Shown: positions 23,501 to 26,500 of the stretch, one piece after another | How positions within the stretch are numbered: the stretch's first letter is position 1 | Layout: each line of letters starts with the position of its first letter | Program-made: the position numbers and the translations under genes | Assembly: GCA_964016885.1 (NCBI GenBank) | Contig: OZ024758.1 | Location: forward strand, 15,562,001-15,626,000 | DNA from: Eledone cirrhosa | Lineage: Eukaryota | Direction of reading: 5' to 3' | DNA: 64,000 bases | Notes under the pieces: generated by a model | Seen by the model: the letters and a program-made list of their open reading frames with translations, nothing else | Told to the model about the DNA's origin: nothing | The model's database searches: none

Positions 23501-26500
23501 TCTACCCCCCATTGTTCTACCTACCGTTCCGACTTCCTCCCCCTCCCCCTCCCCTGTATCTTCTTTGACCTCATGCCCAGCTGTAGCTGGCACTACCAAC
23601 GCTTGATTGGGTCTACTCCACCCCCTCCCCTCTTTCTCCTACTGGCAGGTTTAGCCACCATCTCCTCTACTAATTTGCAACCACAGAATTACTACTGATT
23701 TTTGACAATCACTTTGACCATATATGGAATTACCCCTTGAGAAGATCGGCTATTTAAATACCAGGATAAATGTTCATTTAGTCCAGAATTAGCCGTCGAA
23801 ACGGCTTGAGCTCAGCTGTCGGGGTCTTACTGGTTCCTATTACCCACTCTACTACCTCAAGTATTGAGTACTTTGGTGCGTTATGGTCCACCTGGTTCCT
23901 TACCACATTTCCTTCGTTATCTAGCTCCTACTCCCGTAGTAGAGCACTTTCCGACCCTACCACGCCGTATCCAGACTTTTCCGCTAAGCTCAATTCTTTT
24001 CACCCGCACCATGCGAAAACACAACATTGACTTCTCTACCAAGAACATCCCAATCCCACCGAAAAAACTTTACCTTCGGATGCTCACGCAAAAAATTGAT
24101 CTATTTGCGAAAAGACTTAGATGGAGAACTTTTTTCTATGACAGATATTGCGACAACCAAGACTTCGGCACCAAGGAGAGATTCGGATTTATTACCTACA
24201 AATCTCCGCCCCTGAACCCCTTGCTCGCACCCTTCGAGAATGACCTCTTCCAACTGGTCAAGAACATTAAATTTAAACCCAGACACAACCGATTCCTACA
24301 AAAACTCCGTAGCAACTTAACAGAGTATGATAACACAAATGACATCATGGTGCATTCGGATAAAACTGGGAACCTATACTTTGTCAACCCTGACAGATAC
24401 CTCACACTGATCAGGAGCAGCCTAAACTCCACCTATAAAAAGGCCAACCACTCTTGCATCGAGGACATAAATCGAGATGGACAACAAATCACCTCCAGCC
24501 TCGGGGTCGCCGACCGCACGGAACCTCTAGACCCACGGACACCATACTTCACACTGAAGGACCATAAATCCGATTTTGACCGTAAACCCTCCATCAGGCT
24601 TATTAACCCAACGAAGTCCGACATAGGGAGAATCAGCAAAAAAATCCTAGACCGCGTGATACCAAAAGTCAAGCAACACACCCGACTTAGCCTATGGATC
24701 AACACCCAGGAAGTAATCTCCTGGTTCAGCAATATGGAGGATAAACGAGAAACTAAATTCATACAGTTCGACATAGAGAGCTACTATGCTTCAATCACCT
24801 TACCGCTACTTACTGCCGCCTTGGACTTCGCCGAAACACTCGTGCCCATCACCGACCAGGAAAGAAAAATCATCCTCCACGCCAGGAAGACAGTCTTACT
24901 CTTTGACGACTCTAAATGGATAAAAAGAGCTCCCGACTCACCCTTCGACGTCAGCATGGGCGCTACGGATTCGGCGGAGGTCACTGATCTTATAGGATTA
25001 TTCCTAATAGCCAAACTCACTGATATGTTTCCTGCATTCGGTGGTGGATTGTACCGTGATGATGGGCTCCTTACCCTTAAAGGGTACAACCCCAGTAGTA
25101 CAGATCGGGTCCGGAAACAATTAATCAGATTCTTCCGCGACTGGGGATTTAAAATAACCCTACAAACGTCCCTGACCCGAGTAAACTTCCTGGACGTAAC
25201 CCTCGACCTCGAAAACGACCTGTACTACCCATACAGGAAACCTAATGACAATCTGCACTACATCCACCGCCGATCAAACCATCCTAGGAACATCACAAAC
25301 AACCTGGTCAAAAACATCTCCCTCCGCATATCCCGTTTGTCAGCTAATGAGCGGATATTCGATGAACATGCGCCTTATTACAACCAGGCCCTCAAGCGGA
25401 GTGGTTTCCGGGAGGAAATATCCTACTGTCCAGATCCCATTAGCGGAACCAGCAGGAGACACCGCCGCTCACGCAATGTAACATGGTTCAATCCTCCCCA
25501 CAACGCAGAGGTGACTACTCCCATCGGGAAACTATTCTTTAGGCTCATTGAAAAACACTTCCCATTACAACACCGCTACCACAACATAATTAACAAAAAT
25601 ACCATCAAACTCTCTTACAGCACTACACCAAACTTCGCACAAAACATCGTCTCCTCTAACAACAAAAAACTCAACCCCGATGGCAGAAATAACCTAAATA
25701 GCAGTGGAGAACCGACCAGGAGGTGTAACTGCCCGGATAGATCTATTTGCCCACTCGACAATAGATGCAGAGACCGTAATGTGATCTACCAGTGCAACGT
25801 GAGGACGGATACCTCCAACAAAGCCTATATAGGACTTACCGCATGTGACTTCAAGACCCGGCTATACCAACATAGACATACCTTCCGAAACCCGGCCCGG
25901 CGTCACGCCACTACACTTTCGGGCCACATATGGGACCTCAAGGACAACAACATCACCTATGATCTCACTTGGAGATTACTGTCCAGAGCCAATTCTTACA
26001 CGGGAGGACGCCGTCCGTGCAATTTATGCTCGGAGGAAACTTTACAAATGCTGTTTTCGACGGACCAACTCCTAAACAAGAAAGATGAACTGGTTACTGC
26101 ATGTAAACATAGATTGCGTAGGACTTACCTCGCCCTCAAACCCCATAATGACCCGGGGGGGTAGACTAGGGCTATAACACCCCAGTTGCCGATTTTGCAA
26201 TGGGTAACCCCTGCTTGCCAAGGAAGACGTAAGATCTTCTTTGTATTCATTTATCGCATCTTTTATTTCCTTCCCCCCGCTCTCCTTTGTCCTTCTACCC
26301 CAGCTCTTCTCCTTTGTCGGCGTCTTTTCTCGCCCACCCGAGGCTGCCCTTTGGCCCCATGTAGCCTTAGTACCCCCACTCCCCCCTCCCCTAGTCTTTG
26401 ATAGATTTGGCGGACTCCGCCCTTTATAGCAGTTGGCTTAGACCCCGGATACTTGCCCCCCTTTTCCGACCGCTCCCACTATTCTCTGTGCCCTCTATAT

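Follow-up and report, generated by a model that had tools for sequence, protein, structure and literature searches.

The locus examined here raises the question of whether an unusually built hammerhead motif in the genome of Eledone cirrhosa is a working ribozyme and, if it is, under which circumstances it cuts. The motif lies at 23732-23825 on the plus strand of a 64,000-nucleotide (nt) stretch, hereafter the window (contig OZ024758.1 of assembly GCA_964016885.1, positions 15,562,001 to 15,626,000), in the terminal repeat of a Penelope-like element (PLE). A first-pass annotation had described it as a type I hammerhead with an extended stem II, a palindromic loop III and a U3-A8 core. We find that the motif is a real and very probably functional hammerhead of a Hydra-clade PLE. 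We give roughly even odds to a more specific reading, in which the ribozyme of the pseudo-long terminal repeat (pseudo-LTR) of an intact Hydra-clade element, with U3-A8 in place of C3-G8, would be a conditional cutter that is mostly off as a lone copy and active as a pair.

The proposed pieces of the hammerhead are all present, among them the extended stem II, the GAAA and the GUC. Stem I pairs 23732-23736 with 23821-23825 (5 bp). It is followed by the 5' core box U3-U4-G5-A6-G7-A8-A9 (23737-23743), in which U3 (23737) and A8 (23742) are Watson-Crick complementary in place of the literal C3-G8 consensus, and A9 stands directly before G10.1, with 0 extra bases between positions 9 and 10.1 in the descriptor scan. 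Stem II (23744-23797; strands 23744-23752 and 23790-23797) has 8 bp and one bulged U, closes with the pair G10.1-C11.1 (23744/23797), and carries a 37-nt insert (23753-23789). The inner hairpin reported in that insert exists (23764-23784), but it folds with 8 bp, a 4-nt loop and one bulge rather than with a 2-nt loop. The rest of the core is also in place: GAAA at 23798-23801, GUC at 23818-23820 with C17 at 23820, and G12, A13, A14, the pair A15.1-U16.1 and H17 (23798-23801, 23819-23820). The scissile bond is predicted after GUC, between 23820 and 23821. Stem III and loop III occupy 23801-23819, with the stem strands at 23801-23806 and 23814-23819. The loop is palindromic as described (6 nt at 23808-23813; 8 nt at 23807-23814 with its flanks) and can be read as two bases, the six-base palindrome and one base; we correct the stem to 5-6 bp and the loop to 7-9 nt. 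Three helices of 5, 8 and 5-6 bp surround the junction and stem I is open, which is the type I topology. A 5-bp complement that might join loops I and II (23760-23764 with 23830-23834) was found by eye and is near chance level. We also tried a core register one base earlier, with C3 opposite G8, and rejected it since it disrupts both G5/A6 and stem I. The register with U3-A8 fits best, as it lets four C pair with the four G that directly follow C17. At minimum energy the 94-mer adopts the three-way hammerhead junction (-22.9 kcal/mol) and 23714-23842 likewise a hammerhead; stem III folds alone (-4.9 kcal/mol).

We considered whether the motif could be a chance look-alike or a dead hammerhead with two core mutations. 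A strict descriptor, with stems of at least 5, 8 and 6 bp and thresholds derived from the motif itself, gave four matches in the window; none came up in 2000 shuffles of the 3531-nt repeat unit described below or in 40 shuffles of the window, and looser thresholds gave 1 and 20 matches per 2000 shuffles. The motif is the sole descriptor match within the unit, and the scan found no minus-strand hammerhead at this locus. Five of the 15 rows in a relaxed scan were weak U3-A8 matches (55471-55573 and four in a 32-bp tandem array at 6929-7034), which we dropped as chance-level. A non-working motif would fit the absence of an Rfam match, a folding z-score of -0.75, and the C3-G8 pair in 26/26 rows of the published Hydra-clade hammerheads (Craig et al. 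2021, file S2; PMC8557442). The Rfam search had no match at gathering score over the whole window, and none with the hammerhead models at E up to 10 in 23500-24050 (551 nt). Six C3-G8 minimal hammerhead motifs of the window were likewise missed at gathering score; the search is therefore insensitive to PLE motifs and its blank says little. It does agree with the earlier warning that a CTGANGA-type search would overlook this ribozyme, as Rfam also does. The fold energy of the 94-mer is unremarkable, and since 42 of 200 shuffles were equally stable, fold stability provides no evidence for a ribozyme. Against a non-working motif stand the blank shuffles of the unit, the exactly compensatory nature of the two core changes, the location of the motif where Hydra-clade elements keep their hammerhead, with no other descriptor match in the unit, and the retention of its 3' half in a second family. 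We regard this explanation as very improbable.

The element that carries the motif is, on the protein motifs that mark the clade, an intact Hydra-clade Penelope-like retrotransposon. Its 3531-bp unit has one open reading frame (ORF; 24011-26164, plus strand) of 717 amino acids, recognized from the ORF list, motifs, homologues and a structure model as a PLE reverse transcriptase (RT) with a C-terminal GIY-YIG-type endonuclease and Hydra-clade motifs; the ATG lies 190 nt past the predicted cut. A homologue search found 2020 relatives among 8000 scored candidates; the best 120 of these are 38-54% identical, and 104 of the best 120 were aligned. The protein has RWR at residue 37 (RW[KR] in 100/104 aligned homologues), DKT at 117 in place of DKG (DKT in 95/104, DKG in 0/104) and YRDD at 348, each of these three being kept in 95-103 of the 104. 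Further on are a CxCx5C linker at 572-580 (103/104), tyrosines Y593 and Y606-I-G608 (103/104), which we take from general knowledge to be those of a GIY-YIG-like motif, CxxC at 670-673 (103/104) and CxH at 698-700 (102/104); CCHH is absent as judged by eye. The structure model has a predicted local distance difference test score (pLDDT) of 93, and its best Foldseek match is a telomerase TERT (E 2.4e-8). A Pfam scan of the 717 residues returned 0 families, and a sequence profile search of the PDB gave a single irrelevant match (E 0.4). By eye, the N-terminal and RT motifs resemble those of Hydra-1_Obim and Hydra-1_Ajap. The element inserts into (TA)n and has tandem and inverted copies with a tail, as expected of the Hydra clade, whose published members also insert in (TA)n and come from aquatic invertebrates, one of them from octopus (PMC8557442). 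The first-pass proposal of a PLE-associated type I hammerhead is thus borne out, since all elements are present and the motif sits in a PLE terminal repeat. Its location in that repeat matches published PLEs and the Hydra clade, which supports the preferred reading.

The motif is present in four copies that are identical across 94/94 columns: the one 5' of the full ORF, one 3531 nt further 3' (27263-27356, plus strand), and two in an inverted arm (19270-19363 and 15739-15832, minus strand). All belong to one insertion (about 15644-27371) with TA-rich microsatellite on both sides, whose two arms are joined 5' to 5' at 20566. The right arm (20567-27371, plus strand) has 6805 nt, or 1.93 units, and is 5'-truncated near ORF codon 30; the left arm (15644-20566, minus strand) has 4923 nt, or 1.39 units, and contains a second full ORF (19084-16931). 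Both arms exceed one unit and each crosses two predicted scissile bonds. Each end falls at a TA within (TA)n, on the right 17-20 nt past the cut site of copy 27263-27356 and on the left about 100 nt past that of copy 15739-15832. Copies within the insertion differ at only two single bases, so the insertion looks young. It is unlikely that the copies stem from an assembly fold-back, given the offset junction, the different ends and these two differences.

A family search of the window (blastn, nhmmer and a covariance model; 12 matches at E up to 5, five below E 0.01) recovered only these four copies and a relic, the decayed 3' half of a related hammerhead (8581-8634, plus strand) that ends 18 nt past its cut site in (TA)n. 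The relic is 32/40 identical to the 3' half of the motif. Four of its eight differences are transitions at CpGs, and because all four CpGs (4/4) are mutated we read it as a dead copy whose apparent compensations carry no weight. It has C where the 23732-23825 copy has the U of the stem III G-U pair. It also retains the loop III hexamer while the two bases 5' of it have changed to purines, an observation that supports the preferred reading. The 5' half of the relic is not recognizable or alignable, and with it positions 3 and 8 are lost from this single decayed 3' half, the sole trace of a related family in the window. A 7-bp hairpin upstream of the relic (8562-8586) suggests a different stem II extension there.

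How unusual is the core? U3-A8 preserves the tertiary 3-8 pair, and ribozymes with this pair cut in vitro. As far as literature searches reached, neither this combination of features nor the predicted switch nor the leader hairpin described below has been published, and published drawings may anticipate them; Lunse et al. 2017 reportedly treat PLE hammerhead variants and may describe similar motifs. The first-pass claim of a covariant substitution holds in the best register, but the substitution is no surprise, having already been published. Natural covariation from C3-G8 to U3-A8 was described by Perreault et al., who state that such ribozymes are active in vitro (PMC3088659), and in the Cercyon PLEs of Schistosoma a descriptor for U3-A8 motifs retrieved about 1,300 matches (Cervera and De la Pena 2014, PMC4209133). 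U3-A8 is therefore not new in itself; it is new for the Hydra clade, where 0/26 published rows have it. A literature search for cleavage-rate data on the U3-A8 variant found none. The A8G mutant that had been suggested as a control would be a weak one, as it leaves a U-G wobble that is natural in a PLE motif (a Saccoglossus row).

The evidence for conditional cutting comes from the stems. Stems II and III are near-duplicates (23744-23752 versus 23798-23806, and 23790-23797 versus 23813-23820), which allows the second strand of stem II to base-pair with the first strand of stem III in a 6-bp rival hairpin (23791-23806) that encloses the GAAA core, a predicted inactive fold. This fold lies 0.4 kcal/mol above the hammerhead. 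Six Watson-Crick pairs of this type arose in 669 of 200,000 randomized stem sets, or in 12,724 when G-U pairs were allowed, the test having been chosen post hoc. At 37 °C the isolated 94-mer is predicted to spend 0.47 of its ensemble as the hammerhead and 0.24 as the rival; with native flanks the rival leads in 18/18 settings (0.50-0.90), and prefixes that stop at 23806 or 23815 adopt it as their lowest-energy structure. In a separate context series the rival was ahead in two of four longer contexts; the shortest favored the hammerhead, and in the longest neither fold was ahead.

These predictions have to be weighed against an ordinary monomeric type I hammerhead, in which a stable stem III would permit co-transcriptional cutting of a single copy, and the palindrome and the likeness of stems II and III would be by-products, for example of a short inverted duplication. 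The minimum-energy folds of the 94-mer and of 23714-23842 agree with this explanation, as do the predicted order of folding during transcription, in which stem II forms first, and published type I motifs of invertebrates that have a stable helix III and cut as monomers (PMC7761336). So does temperature: at 15-25 °C the hammerhead takes 0.66-0.75 of the ensemble of the 94-mer. The explanation is opposed by the lead of the rival hairpin in longer flanks and in the two prefixes, by the intact cut sites that every arm spans, and by the palindrome retained in the relic. We consider a plain monomer unlikely.

For the conditional ribozyme, the palindrome would supply the means of pairing. Published PLE motifs require dimers because their helix III is missing or weak (PMC4209133), and in that obligate-dimer class helix III is absent or 1-2 bp long, an extra base stands between positions 9 and 10.1, and loop 3 is palindromic. 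Only the palindromic loop is found here; stem III has 5-6 bp and folds alone, so the usual reason for PLE dimers fails. The first-pass suggestion that the palindromic loop III favors dimers nevertheless keeps part of its force, because joining two copies as a double hammerhead is predicted to gain -16.5 kcal/mol, compared with -11.4 +/- 0.8 for shuffled loops, of which 1/300 reached that value. When flanks are included, the double hammerhead is what the dimer ensemble forms in 4/6 context and temperature settings, as against 5/60 for shuffled loops.

Several points weigh against a switch of this kind. The isolated 94-mer is predicted to fold as a hammerhead on its own at 15-25 °C, with 0.75 against 0.08 for the rival at 15 °C, and it folds better than molecules with randomized stems (median 0.17), so the rival is not unusually harmful. 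In the longest context (23600-24015; 2/6 settings) the palindrome is engaged in other pairings and dimerization fails to bring back the hammerhead. CpG decay (4/4 CpGs) accounts for what looks like a change from C-G to U-A in the relic's rival hairpin, the two ribozymes lie 3.5 kb apart on one RNA, and the evidence for the switch is nearest-neighbor prediction, which leaves out Mg2+ and tertiary contacts. Finally, the ribozyme of an Anolis PLE depended on the PLE protein, and insertion in vitro did not require its cleavage (PMC11167929).

The ends of the insertion bear on what the ribozyme does. A leader hairpin of the form RCTC-stem-loop-stem-GAGY-ACT occurs twice per unit, 25 and 103 nt from the cut site: the right insertion end maps 6-9 nt upstream of the first (23846-23872, plus strand), and the left end 4-7 nt upstream of the second (23924-23948, plus strand). 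Copies of the hairpin on the minus strand are at 19249, 19171 and 15718. Shuffles produced one copy in 42/5000 cases and two in 0/5000, with the motif defined post hoc. A further copy (10642-10665) belongs to an unrelated fold-back element that also carries hammerheads, and the left arm of that element stops about 4 nt before this copy. In two families, then, the motif follows three insertion ends at a distance of 4-9 nt. In six published Hydra consensus sequences inspected by eye, it is clear in three, partial in two and absent in one; the main text of the Hydra-clade study mentions no hairpin or stem-loop (PMC8557442). We infer that the leader hairpin positions the RT and is a candidate reverse-transcription start signal.

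With RT starts so close to the 3' side of the cut, a linear unit that had been cut would yield no more than 17-100 nt of complementary DNA. All ends seen are downstream of a cut site (17-20, about 100 and, in the relic, 18 nt), so the template was uncut or re-joined there, and arms that cross two scissile bonds can arise only from uncut multimers, from a re-joined circle or through template jumps. A circle model for PLEs was proposed in 2014, and for the Anolis PLE unprocessed RNA was the main substrate (PMC11167929). By analogy the Anolis data favor uncut RNA; the 15644-27371 locus itself is compatible with both models. Under either one the ribozyme has to hold back from immediate cutting, in line with the predicted off-state.

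The conditional ribozyme could then work as follows. A promoter in the repeat would give tandem transcripts with two or more ribozymes, and a lone ribozyme would be mostly held off by the rival hairpin. Most ribozymes would stay uncut long enough for RT to start at the TA just upstream of a leader hairpin and to copy back across the scissile bond. Two copies are predicted to pair via the loop III palindrome into an active double hammerhead, and where two ribozymes meet both would cut, releasing unit-length RNA that may be circularized and copied more than once round. A stronger version, which we think quite doubtful, makes this a two-state switch throughout: interchangeable stems II and III would keep the lone copy off, a retrovirus-style nine-base kissing loop would join successive units, the 3.5-kb RNA would be released and circularized, and RT would start at a clade-wide hairpin past the junction and keep rolling along the circle, which would produce the 1.4- and 1.9-unit arms.

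The same ends admit a ribozyme that is assisted by protein or is largely a passenger. It would cut only when RT binds the leader hairpins, or late in the cycle, and would be dispensable for insertion, with the long arms derived from uncut read-through RNA or template jumps and not from circles. The Anolis PLE provides the closest precedent, since its hammerhead showed no cleavage without the PLE protein, its mutants were still inserted normally, and RNA-seq reads with an end at the cut were absent (PMC11167929). Metazoan PLE motifs have published low activity in vitro, Naiad elements proliferate without canonical hammerheads, and candidate RT-binding hairpins lie near the cut here. This explanation leaves the loop III palindrome unaccounted for and sits poorly with a core and stems that are intact in an apparently young element. 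We hold it to be a tentative alternative, with well under an even chance.

Comparison with known systems places the motif between several precedents. The minimal U3-A8 hammerheads of Schistosoma mansoni Cercyon (PMC4209133) share the U3-A8 core, the type I form, the PLE terminal repeat and a spacing of about 3 kb, and PLE motifs of that species have similar helices I (4-5 bp) and II (7-8 bp). Cercyon lacks helix III and has an extra base 9/10.1, whereas the motif here has a stem III of 5-6 bp, a loop III of 7-9 nt and no extra base; loop 2 is 4 and 9 nt in two Cercyon U3-A8 rows, against a structured insert of 37 nt. Hydra-clade hammerheads (PMC8557442) share the clade, the place near the 3' end, a proper stem III and (TA)n targets, and a few rows have a 7-bp stem II; their rows differ in the C3-G8 pair, a loop 2 of 3-10 nt and a stem III of 3-4 bp with a 1-3-nt loop, and the elements are mostly under 3 kb as against the 3531-bp unit. 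The Poseidon element PAc of Anolis (PMC11167929) also has a hammerhead upstream of internal RT starts, two starts that define the tail, and AT-rich targets. PAc belongs to another clade, has a C3-G8 core and an ORF that overlaps the ribozyme, and its RT starts inside an AC-rich stem-loop; here 190 nt separate the cut from the ATG, and a repeated hairpin stands immediately 3' of the insertion ends. The tail here is about 80 nt, compared with the usual 30-40. Loop III also recalls the dimerization initiation site (DIS) of HIV-1 (PMC4066764), a nine-nt loop with a six-nt palindrome that in principle passes from a kissing to an extended duplex, and the same hexamer has been used as a designed kissing-loop variant (PMC11191694). 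The DIS needs three flanking purines (PMC4066764), whereas the flanks here are U, U and A, of which one U can pair with A, and those of the relic are A, G and A; we take the likeness as analogy only and not as homology.

Upstream of the ribozyme is a non-coding, pyrimidine-rich spacer or pseudo-LTR of 1.1 kb (22634-23731, plus strand) with 5' splice-like sites (the best at 22698) and several 3' splice-like sites, which from their sequence make a retained PLE intron possible. Downstream, in 23810-24010, the ORF frame has no stop for 67 codons before the ATG, the nearest being a TGA inside loop III, and an out-of-frame upstream ORF of 13 codons starts at 23883. Type I hammerheads in viral 5' untranslated regions (UTRs) permit cap-independent translation (PMC13725137), and by analogy a role in translation is possible for the 23732-23825 hammerhead.

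Other hammerhead-like motifs and repeats occur in the window. A fold-back element in (TA)n (10426-10691) has two opposite-strand C3-G8 motifs with a long stem II, and its arms end differently, one just before the hairpin motif and one beyond; a long stem II is not unique in this genome, as the motif at 10545-10600 has one. An element of about 195 bp (27502-27697 and 45822-46013, 93% alike) carries a canonical minimal hammerhead (27585-27620, 45904-45939); its first copy lies beside the large insertion and borders directly on the 3' half of another family, at the TA-repeat loop III of that family, as if inserted there. A palindromic family resembling miniature inverted-repeat transposable elements (47692-48016, 56852-57162 and 59191-59565) has minimal C3-G8 hammerheads with a TA-repeat stem III (56884-56944 and 57070-57130 on opposite strands, and 47742-47806). 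Isolated hammerhead-like motifs are at 58670-58724 (minus strand) and 10905-10940 (plus strand), the latter probably decayed, with U at position 3 and G8. The window also contains 32-bp and 48-bp tandem arrays and several dispersed families resembling short interspersed nuclear elements (6768-7867, 28768-29931, and dispersed, for example, 10021-10302, 37562-37843 and 47017-47298). Outside the window, a scan of prokaryotic genomes gave one locus among 45 candidate stretches, with a short ORF fragment and no related ribozyme. A contig filed as bacterial (L001, 109-170 and 247-363) has a related PLE endonuclease fragment beside (TA)n and, by eye, a canonical minimal hammerhead; it looks like animal DNA in a bacterial bin.

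The core substitution adds merely one clade to a known variant, and C3-G8 descriptors and Rfam undercount the hammerhead motifs of PLEs. The role of the hammerhead in these elements is in question, given its weak cutting in vitro and its dispensability for insertion in the sole reconstituted system. In this locus an intact, apparently young element combines an unusually structured ribozyme with two mappable ends and a candidate RT start signal, which makes the question directly testable: the ribozyme may count tandem copies, may wait for RT, or may make circles.

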